Of a stretch of 64,000 nucleotides of DNA, positions 15,793 through 42,484 are shown one piece after another (the first letter of the stretch is position 1; each line of letters begins with the position of its first letter). The stretch covers positions 2,510,966 through 2,574,965 of the forward strand of contig OZ218778.1 in the NCBI GenBank assembly GCA_965112635.1, read 5' to 3'. A model generated the notes under the pieces. It was given only the letters and a program-made list of their open reading frames with translations. It had not been told where the DNA came from and did not search any database. Source of the stretch: an uncultured bacterium. Its GTDB lineage: Bacteria > Oederibacteriota > Oederibacteriia > Oederibacteriales > Oederibacteriaceae. Both the position numbers and the translations under genes were made by a program.

Positions 15793-18700
15793 TCAGGCTT
15801 TCTGGACCAGCTCAACCCCTCCGAGCAGGCCGTAGTTAAAGAGCGAGAACTCGTCCTTGATGTTCCGCTCATCCTCAAAACCGTCCGGCCCGCACCACTG
15901 GTTGTCGTCCCCGGTCTTTTCATGCAGGGGTCCCCAGCTGTTCTGCAGGGAAGAGACCACTTCGATCTCCAGAAGATTCTCTCCGTCTTTGAGATACGGG
16001 GTAAGCTCCAGTTCATAGGGCTGCCACAGGATTTTCCCTGCCTCTTCACCATTGACCCTGACCTTAAAGAGGATGCCCGAGGGCTGGTTCAGCCGCAGCC
16101 AGGTTTTGGCCTTTTTCCGGACATGGAACGGTGTTGAGTAGACCATCCTGCCGCTGTAAAAAGGATAGGTCTGCCTGACCCACGACCCGAACTCCAGTCT
16201 TTTGGTTTCTTCCACGATCTTTCCTTCGTAGGGGCCCGCAAGCTCCACGCCAAAATCCCCGACCACATAGGCCGCCTCCACCTGGGTCAGGATATTGTAT
16301 TGGACCGAGAACTCCGCGACATTCCCCCCTTTTCTGACCAGGCGGCTGATGTCGACCTTGCCGAAACCGCGGTCCCAGTGCCAGGCCCCTGTCTTGGCCG
16401 GAACAGGGACGCCGTTCACTTTGAGGAATCCCTTGTTCAGGTCCTCAATGACTAAAAAAGCGCTCCTGGGGTTGGCCACGTCGCTGGTGAATTTATAGCG
16501 CAGGGTCAAGGGTCCCGTGCTGTCCTTAAAAAGACCCTTGCGGATGACGACCCACGGCTGCCACCACAGGGCATCCTCCGTGCCAAAATGTTTGGCGACC
16601 TTTTCACGGATGCGGAATTCCAGGTCGCGGGCCGTCCAGGTCTGGCCATGGTCAAAAGAGGCTTCCAGCCTGTCCATCACCAGCACGTTCGCGTCCAGCC
16701 GGCGATGCTCCCACAACTTGGGCAAAGCGACTTGTTTTGTTTGGGCAGGCAAGCCCAGCCCTTTGACCGGCCTGGCCTGGGGTATGTTCCCGGTCGATAC
16801 CAGTAGCGACCCGCAAGGAGGCAGGGTGAAAAGCACCTCGCTATCCTTGCCTTTCCGCTGGGATTCCATCTGTCTGGCCGTCCCGCTCAGGGGGTCCAGG
16901 GCCGTGACTTTCTTGGCCCCATTTTTTAAAACAAGGGAATAATGCATATCGTGGATCCTGTCCGAATTGACGATGAACAGGATCAGGTTGTTGCCGTCTT
17001 CCCTGGCGTGGACATAGGTCTGCGGAACGGATTTGCCGTCCAACCCGGCCAGCCTGAACTTCTGGGGCACGGTCTCATTCATAGCCGCCTGTAGGTTCTC
17101 GATACTGGAGGACATCGTCCGCACTCCGGGCTGGCTGGCCAAACCTCTCCATTTTTCCATTGCCGGCTCGCCCTCTATGTCCAGGGGCAGTTCTCCGCTG
17201 AAGATGAGCTGGCCGCCCTGGCTCACGAACTTTTGCAGCAGCCTGAAAGTGGAAGGCCGCCAGGTCACGGACGGCGGCACCACGACCACCTCATAGGCCA
17301 TTTTGCCGACCACAAATTTGCCTTTCTTGACGCTCCCCAGGTCCTGGATGTATCCCTCGTCGCCCAGATCGCAGTCAAATCCTGCGTTCAAAGTGGCCTC
17401 CACCAGCTTGCGGTACTGCTCGTCCAGTCTCTGGGCGTCGCTCAGGTCCTCCAGGGGCGGATTCACGGGAGTGGCCTTGGGCTGGAAATATTCGGTCCGG
17501 GTGGCGACCCCGAAACGGTGGTCGCTTGTGGCGCTCTCGATGGGATGCAGCAAAAGCACATGGGCTCCCGGCTTGCCGCAGGTCAGGGCGTAATGGACCC
17601 GCGTGAAATAATCATTGAGCGGGTTGAGCTCTTTCCAGTAGGTCTGCTGGTAGTTCCATACGGGCGGGTAGTCCCTCTTGGCCCTGCCTTTGGCCGTGTA
17701 CCAGGAAAGATGGGGGCAGAAAAAGGTCGCGCCCAGGACCAGGTCATAATCGCCCAGCCATTTAAAATCCTGGAAAGTGTTGGTGTGACGCGACACGCCG
17801 AATATCTCGGTCAGGACCCGTTTCCTGCCGAGCTGCCTGGCCGCCGAACTCACCTGCTTGACCGTCAGCAGCAGGCCGTCGACTTTGCGGCAGAGATGGT
17901 CTATGCCCGGAGCGTGCTGGAACCGGTAATGGGCCATGACGCCGCCGCAATGGCAGCGTATCTGCGAGGTGAAGGATTCCTCGGCGTTGTAGTGCCCGGT
18001 GTGCTCCAGCCCGTGCTTTTCGCACCACTCGAAGATGGGCTTGCTGTAGGCCTCGGTGAACTGCCTTAAAATGGCGCGGTGCATCAGGAGCCTGATATGT
18101 CTGGCTCCTTTGCCGTCAAAGAACATGTAGGGTAGGTCGTTCCAGAAGTTCCTGCGGTTCCATTTCCGGTAGACTTGGGGCAAACCCTCGTACCAGGGCA
18201 GGCTGTGGTCGGTCTGCCATATCTGGGGCTCGTCCGTGAAAATGCCCGGTATCCTTTTCCCGAACTCCTCCTGAAATTCCTTGGCGTAAACATCATGGGT
18301 CATCCGAATGAACTCCCTCATGGCCTCGGGGTTAAGGAGGTTGGCGTAGGATTCGCCGTTCCACCACGCTCCCTTGGAGTCATAGCGCCGGATGAGGACC
18401 AGCCGTTCTTCTTTCTGGATCTTTCCAGCCTGCTTGACCGCTACGGCCCGGTATTTAAAGAGGTCCTTGCCGCTGCGCTTTTCAATGGCATAGACCATCC
18501 TTAATTCCTGGTCCTTTTGGGAGCGAGGGAGAGGCACTCCCGGAGCCAGGAGGTATGCGTCCAGCAAAGCGGTGCGGTACTCGTCCTTGGTCCCGGCGAT
18601 GAGCCCCCCGGCATTGCCGCTGGGCCACCGGTCCTCGTCGTAAAGCCACAGGTAGCCGTCGTGTTCCTTGGCCGCCTTTAGAGCGGCCCGCATATTGTCG

Positions 18701-18888
18701 AACCATTCCTTGGAAAGATAGTCCGTAACCAGCCCGGCCCTGGAATGGAAAAACCCTCCGGAAAGGCCCACGGAGATCATGTCCGTCATTTGCCTGGCGG
18801 TCTCCCCTGTTTCCAGTTTGTCGTTGATGGACCAGAACGGCGCCGGCCTGAGGATCGTGTCGGGATTTTGGAACTTTTTGATATCCAT
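15793..18888 (-). CDS. Large cytoplasmic glycoside-hydrolase-like protein (1031 aa). It is possibly a GH106-like alpha-L-rhamnosidase, but the family assignment is tentative.
   Basis: There is no signal peptide. The N-terminus (PAPFWSINDKL...ARQMTDMISVGLSGGFFHSRAGLVTDYLS) resembles the N-terminal region of large rhamnosidase-type GHs formerly annotated as GH2 sugar-binding. The genomic context is rhamnose-related. Confidence 0.45.
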   Translation of the reverse strand: MDIKKFQNPDTILRPAPFWSINDKLETGETARQMTDMISVGLSGGFFHSRAGLVTDYLSKEWFDNMRAALKAAKEHDGYLWLYDEDRWPSGNAGGLIAGTKDEYRTALLDAYLLAPGVPLPRSQKDQELRMVYAIEKRSGKDLFKYRAVAVKQAGKIQKEERLVLIRRYDSKGAWWNGESYANLLNPEAMREFIRMTHDVYAKEFQEEFGKRIPGIFTDEPQIWQTDHSLPWYEGLPQVYRKWNRRNFWNDLPYMFFDGKGARHIRLLMHRAILRQFTEAYSKPIFEWCEKHGLEHTGHYNAEESFTSQIRCHCGGVMAHYRFQHAPGIDHLCRKVDGLLLTVKQVSSAARQLGRKRVLTEIFGVSRHTNTFQDFKWLGDYDLVLGATFFCPHLSWYTAKGRAKRDYPPVWNYQQTYWKELNPLNDYFTRVHYALTCGKPGAHVLLLHPIESATSDHRFGVATRTEYFQPKATPVNPPLEDLSDAQRLDEQYRKLVEATLNAGFDCDLGDEGYIQDLGSVKKGKFVVGKMAYEVVVVPPSVTWRPSTFRLLQKFVSQGGQLIFSGELPLDIEGEPAMEKWRGLASQPGVRTMSSSIENLQAAMNETVPQKFRLAGLDGKSVPQTYVHAREDGNNLILFIVNSDRIHDMHYSLVLKNGAKKVTALDPLSGTARQMESQRKGKDSEVLFTLPPCGSLLVSTGNIPQARPVKGLGLPAQTKQVALPKLWEHRRLDANVLVMDRLEASFDHGQTWTARDLEFRIREKVAKHFGTEDALWWQPWVVIRKGLFKDSTGPLTLRYKFTSDVANPRSAFLVIEDLNKGFLKVNGVPVPAKTGAWHWDRGFGKVDISRLVRKGGNVAEFSVQYNILTQVEAAYVVGDFGVELAGPYEGKIVEETKRLEFGSWVRQTYPFYSGRMVYSTPFHVRKKAKTWLRLNQPSGILFKVRVNGEEAGKILWQPYELELTPYLKDGENLLEIEVVSSLQNSWGPLHEKTGDDNQWCGPDGFEDERNIKDEFSLFNYGLLGGVELVQKA

Positions 18889-26601: not shown

Positions 26602-26862
26602 CTACTCCGCTCTAAATCTAAAATAGATGGTCAAACCCAAGAGGATCAATATAGACCTTATTATGATTACGACTGCAATATTTTCTGAGGGTATAGGCAT
26701 GGCCAGGCCAAGCAATACGAATATGACCAGCCCGATTATCCTGAACCGGCTGAGTACTCCCGTCGGCAAGAGCGCTCTTTTTTGCGGCGTCTTGCACTTC
26801 GGGCAGATGAGGGTCTGGCTGGATAGTTTCCCTCCGCATTTATAACAACGGGTCAATGCCAT
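26602..26862 (-). CDS. Small zinc-ribbon membrane protein (hypothetical)
   Basis: CxxC..CxxC (CYKCGG...CPKCKT) followed by two hydrophobic helices. Confidence 0.45.
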   Translation of the reverse strand: MALTRCYKCGGKLSSQTLICPKCKTPQKRALLPTGVLSRFRIIGLVIFVLLGLAMPIPSENIAVVIIIRSILILLGLTIYFRFRAE

Positions 26863-26896: not shown

Positions 26897-27463
26897 CTAC
26901 GGCGAGGAGGAGGATTCCAGCTCCTGAAGCTTATCCCCCACGAGTCCGCCTATCCTGTCCCCGGCCTGGTAAAGGACCACGCTAAAAACGACCAGCACCA
27001 CGGCCAGGATGACGAACGCCCACAGGTGCCTGGACTCATAGCGTTCGATGGTACGGGCAAAGGCGACCAGGCCTATCAAAGCCGCCACGACAATGACGCC
27101 GTCCACGCTGGCCCTCTGCCAGTAGCTTCCGCCCAAATGGAGCCACATCCCGAACTCGTCAAAGGTCAGGGCCAGGGCCACCCCGTAGAGCAGGGCCGTG
27201 ATCTCAGCGGCCCTTCCCGTGGGCCTGCGGAACACGCTGTAGCCGGCCACCAGGGAAAGCAGGAAAATGCCGTAATTGAGGTGGTGCACATGGGTTCCCT
27301 GCGTGAAAAAATACATATTGGGGACCGCTTTGGCCATGATGAGGAAAACCATGATCCTGGCGAGCAAAAAAGTGACGATGAACCCGAACAGGGTCCTGCG
27401 GGCCAAACGGTGGGCTGTTTCGCGGGGCATGGGTTTTTCTAAAAGAGTTTCTTTGGCCGGCAT
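26897..27463 (-). CDS. Hypothetical integral membrane protein
   Basis: A 188-aa product with four or five predicted transmembrane helices and no recognisable motif. Confidence 0.45.
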   Translation of the reverse strand: MPAKETLLEKPMPRETAHRLARRTLFGFIVTFLLARIMVFLIMAKAVPNMYFFTQGTHVHHLNYGIFLLSLVAGYSVFRRPTGRAAEITALLYGVALALTFDEFGMWLHLGGSYWQRASVDGVIVVAALIGLVAFARTIERYESRHLWAFVILAVVLVVFSVVLYQAGDRIGGLVGDKLQELESSSSP

Positions 27464-27544: not shown

Positions 27545-28678
27545 TCAGCCCTTGAGCTTCAGCGCCGCCATGACCTGGTCCGTGATCTGGTTGATCAGGG
27601 CTTCGGTTTCCGGGGCAGCCGGGCCCGCGGCCTTGCTTTTGCCGCAATTCCCAGGGCAGGCCGAGGTACCGTGCACTTTACAGCAGCCCTTGGCTCCTGC
27701 CTGGCATTCCTTGGGGCAGACCGTGATGCCGCAATTCTCTATAGGAACATCGCACAGGGCGCACTCCTTGCCCGTGAACCGGGGGTCCACGATGCCCAGT
27801 TTTCTCTTTGTTTCAAGGAGGGCCGTGGTCTCGTTGTCCGATATCCGGGTGATGGGCTGTCCCAGCTGGGCGGCCAGCATCAGGGTCCGGCAATAGGTCT
27901 CCACGACCTCCACGCACCATTCCGCGTGGGTGACCGAATCAGCCCAGCAAACCAGGCCGTGGTTTCCCATCAGGATGGTGTTGTGGTCTTTGGCCAGGGG
28001 CACGACCTGGTCAGCCACGCTCTTGGTTCCCGGTGTGCCATAGGGAGAAAAAGCCACCATGCCCACGAATATTTCCGCCTCAGGGATGATGCAGTTAGGC
28101 GGGGTAACCCCGGTAATGGCGTAGGCCGTGGCGTGCGGCGGATGGGCGTGGACACAGGCTTTGGCCTTGGGCTGGGCTTTCATGATCTCCAGATGCAGGA
28201 TGATCTCGCTGGTGCTTTTGTTGTGGCCGGCCACCTGTTTGCCGTCCTCCAGCCTGACCATGCAGATGTCTTCCACGGTCAGGTCATTCTTGCTGACCAG
28301 GGTGGGAGTGCACAGCACGTACTGGTCCGAGATGCGGTAGGAAATATTGCCGCCGTTGCCGTCCACAAAATCCCGCTGCCATAATTTCCTGCCGGTCTGC
28401 ACCATTTCTTTTTTGATGGCCATGGCTTCACTGGAATTGAACAGCGACTCAATGGAGCCGAAATAGGCCTTGGGGCCTGCCGGGGTGGCCAGGACCGGCC
28501 TCATGATAACGACCGCGGTCCTTTTGACCGTGATCCCATGGCCCACCACGATATCCTTGGCCGTGGAGGTCACCACCGCGTCGCTGGACAAGACGATCTC
28601 CCCTGCTCCGGCGTTGACCGCCGCTTCCAGGTCCCTGCCCGTGATCACCGCTTTTCCCTGCAGGTCCATGCTGTTCAT
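27545..28678 (-). CDS. Class II aldolase (fuculose/rhamnulose-1-phosphate aldolase family) with an N-terminal extension, a Cys-rich C-terminal segment and a C-terminal amphipathic helix resembling a BMC encapsulation peptide
   Basis: The aldolase_II core carries the metal-binding His pattern (HAHPPHATAY...MGNHGLV). The C-terminal CALCDVPIENCGITVCPKECQAGAKGCCKVHGTSACPGNCGKS is followed by the amphipathic ETEALINQITDQVMAALKLKG. It is the first gene of the BMC operon. Confidence 0.85.
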   Translation of the reverse strand: MNSMDLQGKAVITGRDLEAAVNAGAGEIVLSSDAVVTSTAKDIVVGHGITVKRTAVVIMRPVLATPAGPKAYFGSIESLFNSSEAMAIKKEMVQTGRKLWQRDFVDGNGGNISYRISDQYVLCTPTLVSKNDLTVEDICMVRLEDGKQVAGHNKSTSEIILHLEIMKAQPKAKACVHAHPPHATAYAITGVTPPNCIIPEAEIFVGMVAFSPYGTPGTKSVADQVVPLAKDHNTILMGNHGLVCWADSVTHAEWCVEVVETYCRTLMLAAQLGQPITRISDNETTALLETKRKLGIVDPRFTGKECALCDVPIENCGITVCPKECQAGAKGCCKVHGTSACPGNCGKSKAAGPAAPETEALINQITDQVMAALKLKG

Positions 28679-28696: not shown

Positions 28697-29005
28697 TTAA
28701 TTAGTTTTTGGGCCGTCGATCGGCCTGTAATCGATCTGTTCCACGATCAAACCGCAATAAATATCCACCGCTACATTCCTCGGATAATAGGCGTTGGTGC
28801 CTTCCCGGCCTTCCACATAACCAACCGTCTGTCCCACGGCCGGGTTGAGATGGGTGGCCACCACGACCTGGCGGCCCGTGGCCGCGCCCTTTTTGCTCCG
28901 TAGATCTTCCCGGGTCAGCGTGTCCACGATCAGGAAATGCGTATCCGTAAGCTCCGGGATGAGCTTGTGGTTCACGACTTTGCCTCTCACGATGCCTAAG
29001 TTCAT
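28697..29005 (-). CDS. BMC vertex protein (BMC-P, EutN/CcmL/PduN family)
   Basis: A 102-aa EutN/CcmL-like protein (MNLGIVRGKVV...). It overlaps the upstream BMC-P gene by 4 nt. Confidence 0.85.
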   Translation of the reverse strand: MNLGIVRGKVVNHKLIPELTDTHFLIVDTLTREDLRSKKGAATGRQVVVATHLNPAVGQTVGYVEGREGTNAYYPRNVAVDIYCGLIVEQIDYRPIDGPKTN

Positions 29006-29268
29006 CGGCTCACCTCGTCCACGATGCCTATGACCACCAGGCGGCTCGGCGTGCTCTTGTCGTTGGTCACACGGCGGGCATGGTCCCCGTCCGTGGAAAC
29101 CATCACCAGGGAGCCGTATCCGGCCCCGATATTGTCCATGATGATCTGCGGGTCGCCCTCGGGCTGGTAGTCCGCGTTGACCCTCTGGCCTATTAAAAGC
29201 CTCTGGTTTTGGAAGCTTTTGTGCTTGGCCGTGGAGGTCAAAGTGCCTTCAATTCTGGCTAAGAACAT
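29002..29268 (-). CDS. BMC vertex protein (BMC-P, EutN/CcmL family)
   Basis: An 88-aa product (MFLARIEGTLTST...GSLVMVSTDGDHARRV..VVIGIVDEV) with a typical EutN-fold sequence. Confidence 0.85.
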   Translation of the reverse strand: MFLARIEGTLTSTAKHKSFQNQRLLIGQRVNADYQPEGDPQIIMDNIGAGYGSLVMVSTDGDHARRVTNDKSTPSRLVVIGIVDEVSR

Positions 29269-29279
29269 TGGTTGCTCTC

Positions 29280-30749
29280 CTAGGTAAAATTCAAATTGCC
29301 GCCGATGACCAGCTGGCGCTGTCTCGTAAAGGTCAGCGGGGTGGTCACTCCCTCGCCGGTCGGAGTGGCAATGCTGTAGCTCAGGTATCCCGGCCCGTCC
29401 AGCCCCAGGCTGGCCGCGCAGTTGGCGTTCTGCACAAAGAGCGTGGTGTTCATGGCCCTGGCCATCCTGCTCACATTGTTGATGTTATTGGAATGGATGA
29501 GCGCGGTATGCTTATAGCCATGCTCGGCCTTGACCGCCGCCCGTATGGCCTCGTCGATATTGGGCACCCTGACAATGGGAACAAAGGGCATCATCTGCTC
29601 TTCCTGGACGAACGGATGGTCCTCGTCGGTCTCGCCGAATAAAAGGTCCACCTGGCCGCTCAATTTGAGGCCGGCCGCCTCCGCCAGGAAACTGGTGTCC
29701 CGGCCAATGAATTCGCGCTGGACATGGGCCTGGGCGCAGCCGGCGCCCTTGTCTTTTTCCATGGTAAAAGCCTTCTGGGTGAGCTTGGCGATCTGCTCCT
29801 GGTTGAGCTCCACGGCTCCTGCCCTTTTCATGGCCGCGATAAAGGCGTCCGCCACGCTCTGCAGGACGAACACCTCTTTTTCCCCGATGCAGAGCAGGTT
29901 GTTGTCAAAAGAAGCGCCCTTGATGATGTCCTGGGCCGCTTTGTCCAGGTTGGCGGTCTCGTCCACTACGACCGGCGGATTGCCCGGCCCGGCGGCGATG
30001 ACCCTCTTGCCCGCTTTCATGGCCGACCTCACCACAGCCGGCCCGCCCGTTACGCAGAGGAGGGCGATGTCCTTGTGGTGAAAAAGCTCCACAGCCGACT
30101 CGATGGACGGTTTTTCCACGGTGCAGATCACGTTCTCCACGCCGGTCTTCCGGACGATCTCCCGGTTTATGGACCGCAGGGCGTGCACAAAGCATTTGCT
30201 GGCCAAAGGATGGGGGCTAAAAACGGCTGTGTTGCCCGCGGCAAGGATATTGATGGCGTTGCCGGCCATGGTCGGAACCGAATGCGTGGCCGGGGTGACC
30301 ATGCCGATGACCCCAAAAGGCGCGTAAGCGGTCAGGCTCACGCCGGTGTGGTCGCTGCGGGCCCCTGTCCTCAGGGCCTCCACGCCGACCACCTTTTTGA
30401 CAAGTTTTAGCTTCTCTATTTTATGGTCCATCCTGCCGATCTTGGACTCTTCGAACTCCATCCTGCCCCAGTTTTCCGCCTGCTGTTCGCACATCTCGCG
30501 GATGACCTTGATCATGACATCCCGCTCGTCCAGGGTCATTTGCTTGACCTTTTGCTGGGCGGCCAAGGCCGCGGCCACCGCTTCGTCCATGGTGGAAAAC
30601 ACTCCGTCCGAGCCGCCTGTGCCGCCCCGAGGAGCCGCGGTCCTTACGGGGGCTGTATCTTCTTTTAAATGGGGCTGCAAACGCCGGACCACTTCCTGCA
30701 CAATGGCGGAAACGTCCACATCCTTGCCCTGTATCGTGACTGTAGCCAT
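29280..30749 (-). CDS. CoA-acylating aldehyde dehydrogenase (PduP/EutE-like) with an N-terminal encapsulation-peptide-like helix
   Basis: A 489-aa ALDH-superfamily protein with catalytic Cys in DNNLLCIGEKE. The N-terminal VDVSAIVQEVVRRL is an amphipathic helix separated from the core by a Gly/Pro-rich linker. Confidence 0.9.
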   Translation of the reverse strand: MATVTIQGKDVDVSAIVQEVVRRLQPHLKEDTAPVRTAAPRGGTGGSDGVFSTMDEAVAAALAAQQKVKQMTLDERDVMIKVIREMCEQQAENWGRMEFEESKIGRMDHKIEKLKLVKKVVGVEALRTGARSDHTGVSLTAYAPFGVIGMVTPATHSVPTMAGNAINILAAGNTAVFSPHPLASKCFVHALRSINREIVRKTGVENVICTVEKPSIESAVELFHHKDIALLCVTGGPAVVRSAMKAGKRVIAAGPGNPPVVVDETANLDKAAQDIIKGASFDNNLLCIGEKEVFVLQSVADAFIAAMKRAGAVELNQEQIAKLTQKAFTMEKDKGAGCAQAHVQREFIGRDTSFLAEAAGLKLSGQVDLLFGETDEDHPFVQEEQMMPFVPIVRVPNIDEAIRAAVKAEHGYKHTALIHSNNINNVSRMARAMNTTLFVQNANCAASLGLDGPGYLSYSIATPTGEGVTTPLTFTRQRQLVIGGNLNFT

Positions 30750-30765
30750 AAGAAGTTCTCCTTTT

Positions 30766-31062
30766 TTACGGCTTGTTGACTAACTTGCCTTCGACCTCGA
30801 TGGAATCCACGATGCCGATGATGACCGTGTCCACCGGCGCGTCCTTGGTGGCGTCCGTGAACCGGGCCGAACTGCCCTGGGTGAACATCACGAACTCTCC
30901 CTTGCCCGCTCCCACGCTGTCCACGGCCACGAAGGTGTTGCCCGTCGGAGCCCACTTGCCTTCCTTGGTGATGAAAGGCTGCACGTAGAGCAGTTTCATG
31001 CCCTGGCATTTTTGGTTCTTTTGGGACGACACCACTTGTCCGATAACTTTGCCTAATAACAT
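30766..31062 (-). CDS. BMC vertex protein (BMC-P, EutN/CcmL family)
   Basis: A 98-aa product (MLLGKVIGQVVSSQK...VIIGIVDSIEV). This is the third pentamer paralogue. Confidence 0.85.
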   Translation of the reverse strand: MLLGKVIGQVVSSQKNQKCQGMKLLYVQPFITKEGKWAPTGNTFVAVDSVGAGKGEFVMFTQGSSARFTDATKDAPVDTVIIGIVDSIEVEGKLVNKP

Positions 31063-31125
31063 GGTTGGCTCTCTTTCCCGCGCCGGTCGCTCAACACGGA
31101 CCGGCCTCGATTTTTGAAAAAAGGG

Positions 31126-31395
31126 TTACGGCAGTACTATTCCCAGGCTGTCATGCGGCCGGGGAATGACCTGGACGCTGACGACCTGTCCGGCTTCCTT
31201 GGCGGCCACCGCTCCGGCGTCCACCGCGGCCTTGACCGCGGCCACCTCTCCCACCACGAAGCAGGTGCAGAACCCGCTGCCTACTTTTTTCCACCCTTTG
31301 AACTGGACGTTGGCCGACTTGAGCATGGCGTCCGTTGCCAAAACCAGAGGCGTCAGGCCCTTGGTCTCGATCATTCCTATCGCTTGCTGTGCCAT
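31126..31395 (-). CDS. BMC-H hexameric shell protein (PduA/EutM-like)
   Basis: An 89-aa product with IGMIETKGLTPLVLATDAMLKSANV, a canonical BMC domain. Confidence 0.9.
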   Translation of the reverse strand: MAQQAIGMIETKGLTPLVLATDAMLKSANVQFKGWKKVGSGFCTCFVVGEVAAVKAAVDAGAVAAKEAGQVVSVQVIPRPHDSLGIVLP

Positions 31396-31426
31396 TTGCC
31401 TATCTCCTTTCCCCTTTTAGGGATAT

Positions 31427-32575
31427 TTAATTTTTATTCCCGATGACCTGGGCTGCGGCCCTGGCCACGACGATCTCTTCGTTCGTTTTAATGACCCACA
31501 CGGCGACCTGGGAATCCTCGCTGGAAATCCTGGTCTCCTGGTCGCCCAGGGCCTGTTCATTCCTGCTTGGGTCCAGCTTGACCCCGGCCCACTCCAGGTT
31601 GCTCAGCACGTTCTTGCGGACAAGGGGGTCCTTTTCTCCGATCCCCCCCGAAAAGGTGATGATATCCACCCCGTTGAGGCACACAAAAAAAGACCCCAGA
31701 TACCGGCGCACCCCGTAGGTAAAGGCATCAATAGCCAGTTGGGCCTGGGAGTCCCCGGCCCCTGCCGCTTTTTTGATGTCCCGCATGTCCCCGCCCTTCC
31801 CGCTCAAGCCGGCCAGGCCGGATTCTTTGGACAGGATGAGGGTGGTCTGTTCGATGGTCAAACCGAGCTCTTTCATCAAATAAAGGATGGCAAAAACATC
31901 CACGTCGCCGACCCGGTTGTTCTGCGGCAGGCCGCTCTGCGGGGTCATGCCAAAACTGGTGTCCACGGCCACCCCGTCCTTGACGGCGGCCATGCTGGAA
32001 CTGCCTCCCAGATGGCAGGAAATATGCCGCAGGTCCTTTTTATCGCAAAGAGCCTTGGCCCGCAAAGAAGCGTAGTGGTGGCTGGCCCCGTGGAATCCGA
32101 GCTTTTTAATATGCTGTTCTGTCCTCCATTTATAAGGCAGGGCGTAGGCCGACACGCAATCCGCCATGGAATCGAAAAAGGCGGTCTCGAAAAGGGCCAC
32201 CAGAGGAACTTTGGGGGCCACCTGCTGGAAAGCCCTCATGGCCGCGATGTAGGGAGGGTTATGGGCCGGGAAAAGGAAATTGTAGCTTTCCATGGCGTTT
32301 AAAAGCCTCTCGTCTACCCGGTGGCAGCCGCTCATGTCCTTGGCCCCGATGGTCTTGAAACCCACTCCGCTGAGTTCGGACAGGGACTGCAGGGGTTTGC
32401 CCGGTCCCACCATTTCCTTGAGGGAAGCGTCGATGGCGTCCTCGTAATGCAGGAATTGTCCGCCCTGCTGGCCTATCCGCTCGACTCTGCCTTCGCTCAG
32501 CACGGTCTCGGTTTCCATCTCATAGAGCCTGTATTTGAATGAGGTGCTGCCAATGTTGGCCACCAATATTTTCAC
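31427..32575 (-). CDS. ackA: Acetate/propionate kinase (AckA family)
   Basis: A 382-aa product with the N-terminal MKILVANIGSTSFKYRLYE, the acetate-kinase phosphate-binding start. It is embedded between shell genes. Confidence 0.85.
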   Translation of the reverse strand: MKILVANIGSTSFKYRLYEMETETVLSEGRVERIGQQGGQFLHYEDAIDASLKEMVGPGKPLQSLSELSGVGFKTIGAKDMSGCHRVDERLLNAMESYNFLFPAHNPPYIAAMRAFQQVAPKVPLVALFETAFFDSMADCVSAYALPYKWRTEQHIKKLGFHGASHHYASLRAKALCDKKDLRHISCHLGGSSSMAAVKDGVAVDTSFGMTPQSGLPQNNRVGDVDVFAILYLMKELGLTIEQTTLILSKESGLAGLSGKGGDMRDIKKAAGAGDSQAQLAIDAFTYGVRRYLGSFFVCLNGVDIITFSGGIGEKDPLVRKNVLSNLEWAGVKLDPSRNEQALGDQETRISSEDSQVAVWVIKTNEEIVVARAAAQVIGNKN

Positions 32576-32596
32576 TGCGTATTGCTCCTTGAACGG

Positions 32597-32872
32597 TTAT
32601 TTTAAAAACCCTTCCTCAATGCACTCGTGGGGCTGGGAAATCACGTGGTAGGCCGCCAACTCGCCGTTGACCGCCTTGACCGCCGCGATACCGGCATCCA
32701 CGGCCGCTCTGACGCTGCCCACATCGCCTTTGACGATGGTGGTCACCAGTCCGCCGCCGATCTGGATATTGTGCAAAAGCTCCACCTTGGCCGCCTTGCA
32801 CATGGCGTCGCTGGCGTTGACCAGGCCTGCCAGGCCTCTGGTCTCTATCATTCCGATCGCTTCGTTCATCAA
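32597..32872 (-). CDS. BMC-H hexameric shell protein
   Basis: A 91-aa product with IGMIETRGLAGLVNASDAMCKAAKV. Confidence 0.9.
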   Translation of the reverse strand: MMNEAIGMIETRGLAGLVNASDAMCKAAKVELLHNIQIGGGLVTTIVKGDVGSVRAAVDAGIAAVKAVNGELAAYHVISQPHECIEEGFLK

Positions 32873-32894
32873 AGTGTCTCCTTTTTAAAAGTTA

Positions 32895-33182
32895 TTATTT
32901 GCCTTTCTTGTTCCCCGGCTCCGCATAGTTGGACAACTCTTCGTGCGGGTGAGGGATCACCTGGGCGCTGACCACCTTGCCCAGCTTGGCCGCGGCTTCC
33001 GCGCCGGCGTCCACCGCCGCTTTGACCGCTGCCACATCGCCTTCAACAAAAGCGGTCACCAGGCCTGAACCGGCCGGCTCCCACTTAAGGAAGTTCACGT
33101 TGGCCGCCTTGCACATGGCGTCCACGGCTTCGATCAGCGGAACCATGCCCACGGTCTCGATCATTCCTAGAGCGTTCTTCAT
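32895..33182 (-). CDS. BMC-H hexameric shell protein
   Basis: A 95-aa product with LGMIETVGMVPLIEAVDAMCKAANV. Confidence 0.9.
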   Translation of the reverse strand: MKNALGMIETVGMVPLIEAVDAMCKAANVNFLKWEPAGSGLVTAFVEGDVAAVKAAVDAGAEAAAKLGKVVSAQVIPHPHEELSNYAEPGNKKGK

Positions 33183-33241
33183 TGGGTCATCTCCTTTCTT
33201 TTAGAATCGTGTCCGATCATGGAACAAAAACCCTCTCAACA

Positions 33242-33919
33242 TTATTTAAATAGTTCGACGTTCTTGGCGCGGTGCAAGCCGCAGGCATTCGCTTCATCCG
33301 TGTCCAGATGGACTTCCAATTTTGATTTGGGCTCCACCCTCACGTGGACCTTGTCGAAAACGACCTCAGTGTCGCCGGTGGAGACCCGCAGTTTCATGAT
33401 GTCCTTGTGCTTGACCCCGTAGTATTCCGCATCAGACGGGCTCATGTGCCCGTGAATAGCCGCGCGGACCACGCCTTCTTTAAGTTCCAGCAGACCTGCC
33501 GGCCCCATCACATACGCGCCCGGTGTTCCTTTTATATCCCCCGAGATGCGCACTGGCACATTCTCGATACCCAGGGTGATGGCGTCGGTGTAGGCCAGTT
33601 CGATCTGGGTGTAATTCCGCAGGGGTCCGAGGATACGCATATTGGAGATGAGGCGGCTCTTGGGCCCGATAAGGGTCACGGTCTCTTTGGCCGCGTAAAA
33701 ACCATCCTGGTAAAGGTCTTTAAAAGGGGTGAGTTTGGCGCCTGGCCCGAATAGGATTTCCAAGTCGGATTGCTTGAGGTGCATGTGCCGGGCTGAGGCG
33801 TTGACCACCAGGGGCGACGGCTTGCCTTTCCCTGGGGCTGGGGTACTTTTAGAAGCTGTTTGTTCCAATAGAACTTGCCGGACTACATCGGCAACCATGG
33901 ACCTGGTCAAGTTGGCCAT
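33242..33919 (-). CDS. pduL: Phosphotransacylase PduL (PTAC) with an N-terminal encapsulation-peptide-like helix
   Basis: A 225-aa product with PduL-like duplicated segments (ARHMHLKQSDLEILFGPG...; AAIHGHMSPSDAEYYGV). The N-terminal MVADVVRQVLLEQ is an amphipathic helix. Confidence 0.85.
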   Translation of the reverse strand: MANLTRSMVADVVRQVLLEQTASKSTPAPGKGKPSPLVVNASARHMHLKQSDLEILFGPGAKLTPFKDLYQDGFYAAKETVTLIGPKSRLISNMRILGPLRNYTQIELAYTDAITLGIENVPVRISGDIKGTPGAYVMGPAGLLELKEGVVRAAIHGHMSPSDAEYYGVKHKDIMKLRVSTGDTEVVFDKVHVRVEPKSKLEVHLDTDEANACGLHRAKNVELFK

Positions 33920-34030: not shown

Positions 34031-34786
34031 ATGAAGGCAGCATTGCGTCAATTGAAAATAGAGGAATCTTTCAAGCAGACGGAGTTTATCGATTCTGAGA
34101 CCCTGTGCAAGAAGTTCCAAGCCTCAGAATCGACCATCCGCAGGGACCTTTCTGAACTGGAAAAAAAGGGGCTTATCCGGAGGGTCCATGGCGGTGCTTT
34201 GTCGCTTCACCTGCAGGATGACCATATGGATTTCGCCTATAGGAGCGCCCAGTCCTCCCAGGAAAAGCGCCGCATCGGCCAGGCAGCCGCGACTTTGGTC
34301 AAGGAAGGCACGACCATCATCTTGGACGGCGGTTCCACGGTGGCCGAGGTGGCCCGTCACCTGAATGGCAGGACGCTGCAGGTCATCACCAACTCCATTC
34401 CCATTGCCGAGATCTTCCACGACTCGCAAACCGTGGATGTTTCCCTGACCGGCGGATATCTCTATCCCCGTTCGGGCGTCCTGATGGGCCATTTTTGCGA
34501 GCAGATCCTGTCCATGATCAAAGCCAACACGGTCATTATGGGAATCGGAGGGATCAGCGAGAACGGGTTGAGCAACTCCAACTCGCTTATCGTGGGACAG
34601 GAAAAGAAAATGATCGAAGTCTCCAACCGGGTCATCATCGTGGCCGACCATACCAAGTTCGGCCACGACTCCACGATCTTTTTGGCTCCCCTGGAAAGGG
34701 CCAACGTCGTGGTCACGGATACCCTGGTGGACCCAAAATACGTCACCCTGCTGAAATCCCGCGGGGTCAATGTCTTAGTGGTGTAA
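34031..34786 (+). CDS. DeoR-family transcriptional regulator
   Basis: N-terminal HTH (ETLCKKFQASESTIRRDLSELEKKGLIRRVHGGA) and a C-terminal DeoR sugar-phosphate-binding domain. It is divergent from the BMC operon. Confidence 0.85.
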   Translation: MKAALRQLKIEESFKQTEFIDSETLCKKFQASESTIRRDLSELEKKGLIRRVHGGALSLHLQDDHMDFAYRSAQSSQEKRRIGQAAATLVKEGTTIILDGGSTVAEVARHLNGRTLQVITNSIPIAEIFHDSQTVDVSLTGGYLYPRSGVLMGHFCEQILSMIKANTVIMGIGGISENGLSNSNSLIVGQEKKMIEVSNRVIIVADHTKFGHDSTIFLAPLERANVVVTDTLVDPKYVTLLKSRGVNVLVV

Positions 34787-34795
34787 AGGAAGGTC

Positions 34796-36091
34796 ATGGC
34801 TGATTTCATCCAGGATAACGGGGTTGTCGGAGCCGGAGGAGCCGGGTTTCCCACAGCGGTCAAACTGCAGGCCAAGGTCTCCACTTTTATCGTCAACGCG
34901 GCTGAGTGCGAACCCCTGTTGCACAAGGACAAGGAACTTCTGGCCAACTATCCCGATGAATTTTTCAAGGGATTGGAAACCGCCATGTCCCGCACCGGCG
35001 CCGACCAGGCTGTCATCGGGATCAAGAACAAATACCACGCACTCATTGACTCCCTGCAGGGTAGTTTGCCCAGGTCGGTAAAAATCCACCCGCTGGACGA
35101 CATTTACCCTGCCGGAGATGAGTTTATTCTTGTTTATGACATCACGGGCAAGATCATCCCCCCAGGCGGCCTGCCTTTGCAGGTGGGCTGCGTGGTCAAC
35201 AATGTCGAGACTCTGGTCAACATTGGCCTGGCTAGGCCTGTGATTTCCAAGTTCGTGACGATAGCCGGCGCTGTTAAAGATCCTTGCACCCTCAATGTCC
35301 CCCTGGGCACACCCATTAGCCAGCTGATCTCAGCTGCCGGAGGTGTCACCAGCTCCGAATACGGCGTTCTGGTAGGCGGGGTCATGATGGGCCGCCTGCT
35401 GACCGACCCCCATGAACCGGTGACCAAAACAACGGGCGGAGTGCTGGTTTTCCCTGCTGACCATATTTTGCTGAAACGTTATGGCCGGACGCAAAAAATG
35501 ATTGACCGCATCGGTCGTTCTGCTTGTGACCAATGCAGCATGTGCACTGAAAAATGCCCCCGTTACCTGCTGGGCCACCCCATAGAACCGCATAAAGCCA
35601 TGCGGGCCTTGGGTTTTGCTCCTGAAAAGGACAGGATGATCATGGGCACACTGTATTGCTGTGAATGCAACCTTTGTTCCTTTGTATCCTGCCCTGAGGA
35701 CCTGGATCCCCGTTCGGTCTGCGCTCAGGCCAAGACCAAAGCCAGGGAAAAGAACCTTAAATGGGCCGGTTCCCCACAAGACATACAAAGTCATACCATG
35801 CTTCCCTATCGCCGCACTCCTACCAGGATTTTGTTCCAAAAACTGGATTTGAACGGTTTCACGAACAAGGCACCTCTGCAAAAGCAAAAATTGAGCGTTT
35901 CCAAAGTCGTCTTGCCTTTACGCCAGCATGTCGGGGTGGCTTGCGAACCAGTCGTGAAAATTGGTCAAGCGGTCAGGGAGGGTGAGCTCATTGCCAAGGT
36001 TCCTGAGGGAAAATTGGGCGCTCCACTGCATGCCAGTATTAGCGGAACAATCAAGGAAATAACGGGCACGATCACTATCGAGGCGAATTAA
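34796..36091 (+). CDS. PduS-like RnfC/NuoF-family Fe-S flavoprotein
   Basis: It has the GGAGFPT nucleotide-binding motif of the Complex1_51K/RnfC fold and two 4Fe-4S ferredoxin motifs (CDQCSMCTEKCP; CCECNLCSFVSCP). The C-terminal barrel-like domain is about 90 aa. The 431-aa length compares with about 450 aa for PduS. Confidence 0.75.
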   Translation: MADFIQDNGVVGAGGAGFPTAVKLQAKVSTFIVNAAECEPLLHKDKELLANYPDEFFKGLETAMSRTGADQAVIGIKNKYHALIDSLQGSLPRSVKIHPLDDIYPAGDEFILVYDITGKIIPPGGLPLQVGCVVNNVETLVNIGLARPVISKFVTIAGAVKDPCTLNVPLGTPISQLISAAGGVTSSEYGVLVGGVMMGRLLTDPHEPVTKTTGGVLVFPADHILLKRYGRTQKMIDRIGRSACDQCSMCTEKCPRYLLGHPIEPHKAMRALGFAPEKDRMIMGTLYCCECNLCSFVSCPEDLDPRSVCAQAKTKAREKNLKWAGSPQDIQSHTMLPYRRTPTRILFQKLDLNGFTNKAPLQKQKLSVSKVVLPLRQHVGVACEPVVKIGQAVREGELIAKVPEGKLGAPLHASISGTIKEITGTITIEAN

Positions 36092-36105
36092 AAGGAGGTT
36101 TAGCT

Positions 36106-36666
36106 ATGCCGGAGATCAACACCATCGGGATCGTCGAACTGACCAGTATCAGCCTGGGTTACCAGGTCCAGGACGCCATGCTCAAAACCGCCGCGGTCAG
36201 CCTGATCCTGGCCCGCTCTGTTTGCCCGGGCAAATACCTGATCGCCATCACCGGTGATGTTTCCTCGGTCAAGGCCAGCGTGGCCACTGGCGTGGCTATG
36301 GGCGCTGGAGCCGTGGTGGAGCAGGGCGTCATCGCCAACATTCACCCTTCGATCTTTCCGGCCCTGGCCCAGTCCGTGGAGGTCCCTCCTGAAGGAACTG
36401 GAGCTATGGGTGTCGTGGAAACATTTTCAGCTGCCAGCCTCATCGTGGCAGCGGATGCCGCGGCTAAAACAGCCGAGGTGACCATGTTACGGGTTTATTT
36501 GGCCATGGCTATCGGCGGGAAAGCATACTGTTTGATGACCGGGAAGCTGGGCGATGTCGAAGCGGCCGTGGAAGCCGCGGCCCAATCAGCGGGCGAAAGC
36601 GGCATGCTGGTCAGCAAGGTAGTCATCCCCGCTCCTCACCGGGACCTTTTCAAAGAATACATTTAA
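36106..36666 (+). CDS. BMC-T tandem-BMC-domain shell protein (PduT-like)
   Basis: A 186-aa product with two BMC-domain repeats (IGIVELTSISLGYQVQDAMLKTAAV.. and MGVVETFSAASLIVAADAAAKTAEV..). The Cys in SVCPGK is at the PduT-like pore position. A strong SD (AAAGGAGG) precedes it. Confidence 0.8.
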   Translation: MPEINTIGIVELTSISLGYQVQDAMLKTAAVSLILARSVCPGKYLIAITGDVSSVKASVATGVAMGAGAVVEQGVIANIHPSIFPALAQSVEVPPEGTGAMGVVETFSAASLIVAADAAAKTAEVTMLRVYLAMAIGGKAYCLMTGKLGDVEAAVEAAAQSAGESGMLVSKVVIPAPHRDLFKEYI

Positions 36667-36789: not shown

Positions 36790-38478
36790 GTGATAGCACT
36801 CTGGCCAGTGGATAGTCTTACCAAAGTTTTCCAGGATGACCCAGTCCCGCGCTATAGGGAGAGAGCCATCGATCTTTTTGTGGCCAGGGGTGCCGTGGAA
36901 TCAGCCCAGTGCGCATTCCAATCCGACAAGGACTTGACCGGATTTGAGGTCATGATCGACCCACCCCGGCTCCGCTCCAACCGCAAGCTCTGTCTTGGGG
37001 ATATTAAATGGCGCCGGGTGGAATATGTGCCGGTGCGCCGGCCTTCCTGGTATCTGGACCCAACACAGCGGCTCCGGAACACCGCGGGTTTTTTCCCTGA
37101 CCCACTAATAAACCCGGAAAATTTTCCCAAATTTTACAGCCCTCCAGCCGCTCATCCGGGCCTTTTGCCTCTAGTCACAGGGCACTCCACTATCCCCCTC
37201 TGGCTCACCCTGTCCATTCCGGAAAAAGCTGTGCCTGGCCTTTACACGGGTTCCCTGACCATCAAAACGCCCCAAAGTTCCCGGAGCATTAAATTGAACG
37301 TGGAAGTCTCTCCGGCCATTTGCCCCCAGGAGCGGACCCTAAAACTGACCCATTGGTTCAGCCCCCAGAACATCGCTAAAGCCGGAAAAGTAAAACTCTG
37401 GAGCCCTCAGCACTGGAAATTGTTATCGCACTGGGGCCGCGACCTGGCCCTGCACCGCGCCAATGTTATCTTTACTCCCTTGTCCGACCTTCTTCACCTC
37501 ACCAAAAAAGGAAACAGGCTCCGTATCGACTTCTCGCGGTTTGATAAGTGGGTCAGAACTTTCCAGCAGGCAGGCGCCATAGGGTATATTGAAGGCACTC
37601 ATCTGGCCAGCCGCATCAACAATTGGCAAAGCCAATACGGCTTGAATCCCTTTATCATTCATAAGGAGGGTGGAAAGACCGAGAACCTCAATAAATGTCC
37701 GGCCCAAAATCCCCGCTGCCGCGCCTTTCTGAAAGATTTCTTGGCCCAGCTCAGCGCTCATCTTAGGGAAAAAAACTGGGATTCTTTTTATTATCAGCAT
37801 GTGGCCGATGAGCCCATCCCGGAAAACACCGCTTCCTACCGCGCACTCACGGATATGGTCAGGGAATTCGCGCCTGGCCTGCCCATTCTGGACGCCCTGC
37901 TGGGCTCCGAGGCACTGGCCGGGACCGTCAATATCTGGTGCCCCCAGTCCCAGGAAGCGGAAAAGCATCTGGAATTTTTCCACTCACGCCAGGCTCTGGG
38001 CGAGGAAATATGGCATTACACCTGCTGCTCCCCCAGTCAGAAATTCCCTAACCGTTTCCTCAACCAGCCGCTCCTCGGCACCCGTCTCCTGCACTGGTTC
38101 AATCACAAAGCGGGGCTGACCGGTTATTTGCACTGGGGCTTTAACTTTTGGGTATCCGGAGGTTTTCCCGATGCCAACCCCTTTACCGACACCGAGACCA
38201 CGGAAACTTACGGGACCACCCGGCTCCCGGCAGGCGACAGCCACCTGGTCTATCCCGACCCGGACGGCAAACCGTTGGACTCCATTCGGCATGAGATGGT
38301 GCTGGAGGGAGTGCAGGATTACGAACTATTGCAGGTGCTCAGCCGCAACGACCCGGACAAAGCCATGCGTTTGGCTAAGGCAGTTCTGCCTACCTTGGTA
38401 GAATACGAAAAAAAGCCTGCGGTTTTCAGGAAAATCAGGGCCGAACTTCTGGCAGGGGTTGCCCGGGCCCAGGGATGA
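36790..38478 (+). CDS. Hypothetical glycoside-hydrolase-like protein (DUF4091/GH123-like, tentative), GTG start
   Basis: A 562-aa product with no signal peptide. An SD (AAGGAG) lies 6 nt upstream of the GTG. The WHYTCCSP segment and the overall size are reminiscent of DUF4091-containing GH-like proteins. The call is weak. Confidence 0.4.
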   Translation: MIALWPVDSLTKVFQDDPVPRYRERAIDLFVARGAVESAQCAFQSDKDLTGFEVMIDPPRLRSNRKLCLGDIKWRRVEYVPVRRPSWYLDPTQRLRNTAGFFPDPLINPENFPKFYSPPAAHPGLLPLVTGHSTIPLWLTLSIPEKAVPGLYTGSLTIKTPQSSRSIKLNVEVSPAICPQERTLKLTHWFSPQNIAKAGKVKLWSPQHWKLLSHWGRDLALHRANVIFTPLSDLLHLTKKGNRLRIDFSRFDKWVRTFQQAGAIGYIEGTHLASRINNWQSQYGLNPFIIHKEGGKTENLNKCPAQNPRCRAFLKDFLAQLSAHLREKNWDSFYYQHVADEPIPENTASYRALTDMVREFAPGLPILDALLGSEALAGTVNIWCPQSQEAEKHLEFFHSRQALGEEIWHYTCCSPSQKFPNRFLNQPLLGTRLLHWFNHKAGLTGYLHWGFNFWVSGGFPDANPFTDTETTETYGTTRLPAGDSHLVYPDPDGKPLDSIRHEMVLEGVQDYELLQVLSRNDPDKAMRLAKAVLPTLVEYEKKPAVFRKIRAELLAGVARAQG

Positions 38479-38484
38479 AAAACT

Positions 38485-41201: not shown

Positions 41202-41203
41202 GG

Positions 41204-42388: not shown

Positions 42389-42484
42389 AGCGGCTTACCT
42401 CCTATGATTATTAATGTTTAGTTGCTTAACAAAGGCATCATATCAATTCCCTTTTAAAATCACAAGACAACGCAACCGGGCAGG

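Follow-up and report, generated by a model that had tools for sequence, protein, structure and literature searches.

A cysteine-rich linker in the signature class II aldolase of a PVM-type bacterial microcompartment locus and its possible role as a metal-thiolate tether

The stretch of DNA considered here (the window; 64,000 nucleotides, positions 2,510,966 to 2,574,965 of the forward strand of contig OZ218778.1 in GenBank assembly GCA_965112635.1, from an uncultured bacterium of the Oederibacteriaceae) carries a locus for a bacterial microcompartment (BMC), and our subject is a segment with an exceptional cysteine content in the signature class II aldolase of that locus. The aldolase is encoded by the last gene of a minus-strand BMC operon that begins with PduL, and its open reading frame (ORF) is unbroken over 377 codons in the ORF list and its translation (Table 1). 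The 43-aa string CALCDVPIENCGITVCPKECQAGAKGCCKVHGTSACPGNCGKS belongs to the C-terminal part of this protein, which also holds a Pro/Ala stretch (KAAGPAAP) and the amphipathic ETEALINQITDQVMAALKLKG; all three had been quoted exactly in an initial annotation made from the DNA letters. That annotation had counted eleven cysteines in the string, a number that a direct count corrects to nine: C306, C309, C316, C321, C325, C332, C333, C341 and C345.

These nine residues amount to 22.5% of aa 306-345 and to 15% of the 60-aa linker, and the stretch from aa 306 to aa 356 contains no F, W or Y and a single His, while G, P, K and A are abundant. At the background cysteine frequency of the window, which is 1.39% of the 18,709 residues encoded by 44 long ORFs, a given stretch of 40 residues has a probability of 3.6e-9 of holding at least 9 Cys, and 7e-5 such stretches would be expected in the whole window. 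The runner-up in cysteine density is the Fe-S dicluster region of a PduS-like protein, with 6 in 40. At the DNA level, the one two-copy repeat detected is an exact 11-nt direct repeat, TGCCGCAATTC, at 27640..27650 and 27727..27737, which reads N-C-G twice on the coding strand (ENCGI and GNCGK); it may record a small duplication by which a Cys was gained, or it may be due to chance.

A sequencing or frame artefact, or a spurious extension of the ORF, is virtually excluded by separately assembled contigs and by in-frame homologues. The identical aldolase is on record from three contigs (NCBI, ENA and Logan), one of which is a separately assembled 17.5-kb Logan contig with the same translation, and the linker and the encapsulation peptide are in frame in the homologues too. 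Together with the continuous ORF, these observations uphold the earlier judgement that a frame error was unlikely.

Table 1. Features of the aldolase gene and of the surrounding microcompartment locus (positions are those of the window)
Feature	Position	Strand	Basis
BMC signature class II aldolase, complete gene (377 aa + stop)	27545..28678	-	ORF list and translation; Pfam; Foldseek
N-terminal beta-alpha-beta-alpha-beta module, ~55 aa, related to EutQ and EutT N-termini	28514..28678	-	AlphaFold2 pLDDT 91-97; family profile matches
FucA-like catalytic domain, aa 86-300	27779..28423	-	phmmer vs PDB; hhalign to E. coli FucA residues 19-211; invariant columns
Linker start, family-conserved, K304-E-C306-A-L-C309-D-V-P-I-E-N-C316-G-I-T-V-C321-P322	27713..27769	-	Conservation in 120 homologues; also in Opitutaceae
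Cys-rich segment, aa 306-345, 9 Cys/40 residues	27644..27763	-	Direct count; chance estimate
Lineage-specific Cys-rich extension and Pro/Ala spacer, aa 323-356 (C325, C332, C333, C341, C345, then KSKAAGPAAP)	27611..27712	-	Sub-lineage columns; AlphaFold2
C-terminal encapsulation peptide, aa 357-377, ETEALINQITDQVMAALKLKG	27548..27610	-	AlphaFold2 helix; pattern conservation; published definition (PMC4594438)
Rest of BMC operon: BMC-P, BMC-P, CoA-acylating aldehyde dehydrogenase (AldDH), BMC-P, BMC-H, acetate kinase, BMC-H, BMC-H, PduL	28697..33919	-	Pfam; NCBIfam PRK15398 for AldDH
Divergent genes: DeoR regulator, PduS-like Fe-S flavoprotein, PduT-like tandem BMC-T	34031..36666	+	Pfam; NCBIfam rnfC subfamily and eut_PduT best matches
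Rhamnose-use neighbourhood: GH123, xylose-isomerase-like TIM barrel, rhamnulokinase-like kinase, RhaI-like isomerase, major facilitator superfamily transporter	36790..43816

The call of a BMC class II aldolase made in the initial annotation is borne out by Pfam, by the FucA-like fold and by the shell-gene locus. The Pfam family Aldolase_II (PF00596) matches aa 91-265 with 146.7 bits, against a curated cut-off of 22.2, and a Foldseek search of the PDB returns FucA-type aldolases (1FUA, 1E4C and others; E 1e-16 to 1e-19, target template modelling score about 0.89, root-mean-square deviation 2.2), as does a phmmer search of the PDB sequences. In an hhalign alignment, the ligands E73, H92, H94 and H155 of E. 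coli FucA correspond to E158, H177, H179 and H240 of the window aldolase, which are invariant in 120 homologues as the metal ligands, and the chain of FucA ends at about aa 300. E. coli FucA, known from PDB entry 1FUA and from mutants, therefore shares the fold and the same Glu and three His with the window aldolase and, judging from the neighbouring genes, probably also the type of reaction; in contrast, it is 215 aa long and has neither an N-terminal module, nor a Cys linker, nor an encapsulation peptide.

AlphaFold2 (AF2), run on the window aldolase with a 120-sequence alignment, gave a mean predicted local distance difference test (pLDDT) score of 84.5, with a confident catalytic core, a disordered linker around aa 59-72, intermediate values of about 66 at aa 301-310, values below 50 at aa 319-338 and aa 347-353, and a confident helix at aa 356-376 (pLDDT 84-91). 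In this helix, the hydrophobic residues L361, I362, I365, V369, M370 and L373 of ETEALINQITDQVMAALKLKG have the spacing of an encapsulation peptide, and the pattern (D/E)xEALVxxITDEVMxAL is kept across the homologues, such that ETEALINQITDQVMAALKLKG is predicted to target the enzyme as cargo into the shell. Because the FucA-like domain ends at about aa 300 and the terminal helix spans aa 356-376, the Cys-rich segment is the linker itself (aa 301-356), which joins the catalytic domain to the encapsulation peptide and sets the two apart. The Cys stretch thus lies upstream of the encapsulation peptide, where it had been placed at the outset; the modelling of the C-terminus that had been suggested at the same time found no confident fold for the Cys region.

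The distribution of these cysteines was followed in a main set of the best 120 homologues, which are 47-60% identical to the window aldolase, by counting linker Cys between D298 and E359, and about 320 homologues were compared overall for these counts. In the best 120, the linker is 29-64 aa long and contains no Cys in 2 sequences, one in 6, two in 16, three in 27, four in 1, five in 31, six in 34, seven in 2 and nine in 1. The window aldolase has the highest count, 9, among the approximately 320 homologues, and 2 or 3 linker Cys are commonest in species-representative genomes. Right after the catalytic domain, nearly all homologues share the motif K-E-C-x-L-[C/S]-D-x-P-[E/D]-x-P-G-x-I-x-x-x-P, in which E305, C306, L308, D310, I318 and P322 are each at least 90% conserved in the set of 120, while C309 is Ser or Ala in many sequences. 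The form K-E-C-x-L-C-D-x-P...G-I-T-V-C-P occurs at this place in homologues from Acidobacteriota, Aminicenantes and Opitutaceae; 120 PVM aldolases of Opitutaceae (Verrucomicrobia) have the motif as LKECELCDSADFRPGVVC, together with 2-5 linker Cys and a similar C-terminal helix. In one homologue from Opitutaceae (P0050; 437 aa, listed as partial), the catalytic domain is repeated and the tail continues directly as N-terminal sequence, which looks like an assembly or wrap-around artefact, so that its length is no guide to a real domain architecture.

Beyond the shared motif, the cysteines follow lineages. A Terriglobia-type group has the extension ECQLCDQPExPGGITVCPxxCPxNCPGGC, and 38 distinct linkers of a six-Cys group retain ECQLCD...VCPxxCPxNCPGGC but differ at the intervening positions. 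The group to which the window aldolase itself belongs (15 sequences, including two metagenome-assembled genomes (MAGs) of Aminicenantes) has ITVCP-xxC-x5-8-C-x-[LV]-[HQN]-G-x3-CP instead, and conservation reaches 87-100% in its five Cys columns (mean 0.97) but averages 0.57 in the other linker columns. Four of the nine cysteines of the window aldolase fall outside this conserved core: C309 is the partner of C306 in a widespread CxxC, C316 is found in the window aldolase only, C333 is common to P0031 of the same group (a CC pair is also present in P0069, of another group), and C345 is common to two other sequences. Lineage specificity, which the initial annotation had proposed to settle by alignment, hence applies to the extension (C325, C332/333, C341 and C345) but not to the KECxLCD motif, which is family-wide. 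Its statement that such a module is standard neither in fuculose/rhamnulose-phosphate aldolases nor in encapsulation-peptide linkers fits E. coli FucA, where the segment is absent, but Cys in this linker turned out to be a trait of the family. As for homologous BMC aldolases without a Cys cluster, which had been named as evidence against the proposal, sequences with 0-2 linker Cys do exist and others are Cys-rich, indicating that the cluster is accessory and not essential to the family.

Two further comparisons concern other disordered linkers. The encapsulation-peptide linkers of AldDH and PduL, encoded in the same operon, contain no Cys at all. In the homologue P0023 (390 aa), the N-terminal inter-domain linker (residues ~62-90) carries a metallothionein-like insert, CHCAGGKCTCSEGLCTCPPGTCSCKTCS, with 9 Cys in 28 aa, which shows that Cys-rich stretches arise in whichever disordered linker of the aldolase is available.

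At its other end, the aldolase starts with a module of about 55 aa that has no match in Pfam. The family profile of this module aligns with residues 2-47 of E. coli EutQ (probability 82%, E 1e-5) and with residues 17-47 of EutT (probability 89%, E 2.4e-6), the identity to EutQ being that of a weak match (27% in the profile alignment and 29% pairwise). In Eut compartments of Salmonella, helices H1 and H2 of EutQ, within residues 9-41, bind the shell, while H3 and H4 bind the encapsulation peptides of cargo (2025 study, PMC12487888). Since the profile match covers the EutQ stretch that includes H1/H2, we propose that the module may bind the shell, although it differs from EutQ in being predicted by AF2 as alpha/beta and not as helices only, and it lies at the end opposite to the Cys segment. 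A PVM-type aldolase may then have its own shell-binding module at the N-terminus in addition to the encapsulation peptide at the C-terminus. The shell-lumen tethering that had initially been considered for the Cys module is better accounted for by these two elements, which are more likely to tether the enzyme than the Cys segment is.

The locus as a whole is a PVM-type rhamnose microcompartment. Of the hallmarks of this type, which serves the use of fucose and rhamnose (PMC4207490), those present are the class II aldolase as signature enzyme, AldDH, a PduL-type phosphotransacylase (PTAC), acetate kinase, a DeoR regulator and three BMC-P; the shell genes adjoining the aldolase comprise three BMC-H, three BMC-P and one BMC-T. 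The rhamnulokinase-like kinase and the RhaI-like isomerase encoded nearby score just under the NCBIfam equivalog cut-offs, and from these two neighbours we infer that rhamnulose-1-phosphate or fuculose-1-phosphate is the probable substrate of the predicted aldolase. The xylose-isomerase-like TIM barrel, at 38485..39708, has no NCBIfam match. For the recycling of NAD+, no lactate/malate-dehydrogenase-like enzyme was found among the window ORFs scanned and no alcohol- or lactate-dehydrogenase-type enzyme among the locus ORFs scanned, a PduS-like protein and a PduT-like BMC-T being present instead. These are encoded at 34796..36666 on the plus strand; the former is a Fe-S flavoprotein of the RnfC subfamily and the latter a tandem BMC-T with the sequence SVCPGKY, whose Cys we take to be the ligand of the PduT cluster.

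The same gene set, including PduS and BMC-T, is found in most of 80 related loci from species-representative genomes, which are nearly all from Acidobacteriota, with two from Aminicenantes, one from Verrucomicrobiia and two from MAGs labelled Arcobacter. PduS and the PduT-like BMC-T are both present in 29 of the 41 loci whose aldolase has at most 3 linker Cys and in 8 of the 8 loci with at least 4. A tie between Cys-rich tails and the PduS/PduT electron path is thus not supported, because the pair accompanies low-Cys and high-Cys aldolases alike.

Some other features of the window were recorded in passing. Directly downstream of the aldolase, two small genes on the minus strand (26602..26862 and 26897..27463) encode products of 86 and 188 aa: the 86-aa one has a CxxC...CxxC N-terminus (a weak Prok-RING_1 match under the cut-off) followed by a hydrophobic stretch, while the 188-aa one is mostly hydrophobic and without a family match. 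Seven ORFs of 750-1,100 aa, at 2333..4594, 4641..6944, 8498..10771, 15793..18888, 46766..49684, 50835..53825 and 53914..57198, lack a Pfam match at E up to 1e-5, and the window contains no rRNA, tRNA or other Rfam match. The eleven window proteins that were looked up (the aldolase and ten others) are all singletons in clusters at 90%, the nearest aldolase homologue is 58% identical and the best match in a species-level genome, in Aminicenantes, is 56% identical; singleton clusters and such distant homologues suggest a poorly sampled lineage.

What could such a linker do? The reading that we favour, while regarding it as tentative, is that the segment serves as an accessory, non-essential tether whose thiolates hold metal in the way of a metallothionein or a knuckle. 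The tether consists of two layers. Its first ~19 residues (KECALCDVPIENCGITVCP), which begin five residues past the point where E. coli FucA ends, represent the motif conserved across the BMC aldolase family, and the following ~25 residues are a lineage-specific expansion that adds C325, C332/333, C341 and C345. The thiols of this tether may bind metal, most likely Zn2+, the cofactor of class II aldolases, with a Fe-S cluster being conceivable in anaerobes. Metal binding would then compact or cross-link an otherwise disordered tether, within one tetramer or between tetramers, which could govern the way in which the cargo core retains the enzyme; buffering of the catalytic metal within the closed shell may be a further role. 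The Cys module is accessory and not catalytic.

Several observations point in this direction. Since the Cys are conserved lineage by lineage, since E305, C306 and D310 are near-invariant and aromatic residues are lacking, and since the AldDH and PduL linkers are free of Cys while P0023 has acquired its Cys-rich insert elsewhere in the protein, it appears that thiols in a flexible tether are under selection. Where Cys are densely clustered in a cytoplasmic protein of a bacterium, they usually serve as metal ligands. The composition is also metallothionein-like, with 22.5% Cys (at least about 15-30% being characteristic of such segments), with CxxC, CxxxC and CC arrangements, without aromatics over aa 306-356 and with low pLDDT; as apo-metallothioneins are disordered, the low pLDDT of the Cys region fits the metal-thiolate reading. 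Metallothioneins and the Cys/His-rich metal-binding tails of metalloenzyme accessory proteins indeed resemble the segment in their high Cys content, in these arrangements, in their lack of aromatics and in having no predicted fold without metal. They differ from it in that the tail has no Pfam match and is embedded in the linker of an enzyme rather than being a free small protein, and metal binding by the tail is a proposal.

Other results weigh against a metal-thiolate tether. The tail has no match at E up to 10 either in Pfam, metallothionein families included, or among PDB sequences, and NCBIfam searches with the whole aldolase at E up to 1e-5 returned aldolase-type families only and no metal-binding family. 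The Cys spacings of the tail (one CxxC, C306-C309, then x6, x4, x3, x6, x0, x7 and x3) do not match the canonical spacing of Zn-ribbons, rubredoxins or ferredoxins (paired CxxC/CPxCG or CxxCxxCxxxCP). AF2 is often confident on true zinc knuckles, and yet the Cys region has a pLDDT below 50 not only in the window aldolase but also in the six-Cys consensus homologue P0036 (residues 324-352), for which the alignment is consistent through the linker. Finally, the number of linker Cys varies from 0 to 9, with two homologues having none, and no set of ligands is fixed across the family. Because of the missing Pfam and PDB matches, the lack of a fitting spacing and the low pLDDT, we do not file the segment under a known metal-binding domain family, and of the metal, Fe-S or Zn-knuckle reading advanced initially, the general idea remains plausible while a database match and a confident fold are missing.

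When the tail by itself was used in a word-index search of proteins, no candidate came up. From 1.84 billion representatives, phmmer returned six matches to the 92-aa tail, namely two aldolase tail fragments and four others, of which the two inspected were low-complexity repeat proteins; among the matches inspected, the tail was thus not detected on any other enzyme family. Two further interpretations were set aside. A precursor peptide of the SCIFF type or another ribosomally synthesized and post-translationally modified peptide was rejected, because the Cys sit in a 377-aa enzyme and no maturase family was seen among the neighbouring ORFs scanned. Heme-regulatory CP motifs were also discarded, as there are only two CP dipeptides and these lack the usual hydrophobic context.

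Among the alternatives to a metal-thiolate tether, one is that the segment has no dedicated function and is a disordered spacer of drifting composition, in which nothing but the short KECxLCD motif is of importance and the additional Cys are tolerated passengers. The linker varies from 29 to 64 aa and from 0 to 9 Cys, some homologues having 0-1 Cys, its Cys region has low pLDDT, C309, C316, C333 and C345 are not conserved across the sub-lineage, and aldolase linkers are described as being without conservation in PMC4594438, all of which speaks for drift. We nevertheless consider it rather unlikely that drift suffices: Cys is a costly and reactive residue that is rare in disordered linkers and yet accounts for 22% of the residues here, the conservation of the core Cys columns (0.97) exceeds that of their neighbours (0.57) on top of an extreme enrichment, and the other encapsulation-peptide linkers of the operon are Cys-free. 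By analogy with carboxysomes, where redox-sensitive Cys of the scaffolds CcmM and CsoS2 are proposed to act in core condensation, the Cys could instead be joined reversibly as disulfides, inside an aldolase tetramer or from one tetramer to another, after closure of the shell, which would stiffen or condense the cargo core. Such a redox switch would profit from Cys placed in a disordered and exposed tether, and the PduS-like Fe-S flavoprotein and PduT-like BMC-T of the locus indicate that the lumen handles electrons; however, this same pair accompanies aldolases with few and with many Cys, a metabolosome lumen with NADH and CoA-SH should be reducing, and many linkers have an odd number of Cys (3, 5 or 9). 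Moreover, the richest variants come from fen MAGs (for example of Aminicenantes and Terriglobia), while Acidobacteriaceae, which are typically aerobic, have 2, a distribution opposite to that expected for an oxygen-driven switch, even if it is only suggestive. Altogether, we judge cross-linking by disulfides to be unlikely.

Another mechanism would concern the first motif and its proximity to the active site. Acting as a cysteine switch, the E-C-x-L-C-D sequence could reach the adjacent subunit and coordinate its catalytic metal, keeping the aldolase quiet until docking of the encapsulation peptide pulls the tail off. The motif does start five residues past the mobile C-terminal lid of FucA, whose chain stops at a position equivalent to about aa 300 of the window aldolase; Y209 and R212 of that FucA tail are targets of active-site mutants among the PDB matches, E305, C306 and D310 are all potential metal ligands with at least 90% conservation, and the pLDDT of 66 at aa 301-310 is intermediate. 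Nonetheless, the AF2 monomer model has no docked strand or helix at aa 303-322, C309 is replaced by Ser or Ala in many homologues, and capping of the active site would account for the first motif but not for the expansion to nine Cys, which makes this mechanism quite improbable. An extension of the metal-thiolate reading goes further and is, to our mind, doubtful: a metal site (Zn or Fe-S) peculiar to BMC aldolases would couple the metal or redox state to the packing or the switch-on of the enzyme. With the EutQ-like module at its N-terminus and the encapsulation peptide at its C-terminus, the aldolase itself would then be the shell-to-cargo bridge of PVM-type compartments and its Cys module the adjustable joint.

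In kind, the segment is the encapsulation-peptide linker already known from BMC aldolases, in a Cys-enriched form. Class II aldolases that belong to PVM, PVM-like or GRM5 compartments have an amphipathic helix of ~17-20 aa after a linker of 23-81 aa (Aussignargues et al. 2015, PMC4594438), and, according to Table 2 of the same survey, aldolase linkers are the most Cys-rich ones, with 5.5 +/- 3.6% Cys versus 0.2-1% for AldDH, PduE and PTAC. The window aldolase, likewise the signature enzyme of a fucose/rhamnose compartment, has the same layout of a linker followed by a helix; it differs from what the survey describes in the conserved KECxLCD..GITVCP motif, in the positional Cys and in their number of nine, given that encapsulation-peptide linkers are stated there to have no conserved composition or sequence. 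The Cys of the aldolase are not mentioned in the locus catalogues of 2014 (PMC4207490) and 2021, nor in a 2025 study on condensation by encapsulation peptides, and we found no description of the KECxLCD motif or of the Cys clusters in the literature, leaving aside the alignments of Erbilgin et al. 2014 and the supplement of PMC4594438. The likeness to CcmM and CsoS2 lies in Cys that are placed in flexible parts of the scaffold of BMC cargo and might adjust the packing of the core; there is no homology, and the oxidising lumen of carboxysomes contrasts with the presumably reducing NADH/CoA lumen of this compartment.

Compartments of the PVM type are among the commonest catabolic microcompartments of soil and marine polysaccharide degraders, and the packaging of their signature enzyme is known only in outline. 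A conserved Cys motif with lineage-specific expansions up to nine Cys would contradict the view of encapsulation-peptide linkers as featureless spacers. If the Cys turned out to be an inert feature of composition, the range of 0-9 Cys would still be defined, and the cluster would be dispensable for the family. If metal binding is true, the tether would constitute a cofactor-dependent element in the assembly of cargo and would offer a handle for the engineering of encapsulation.

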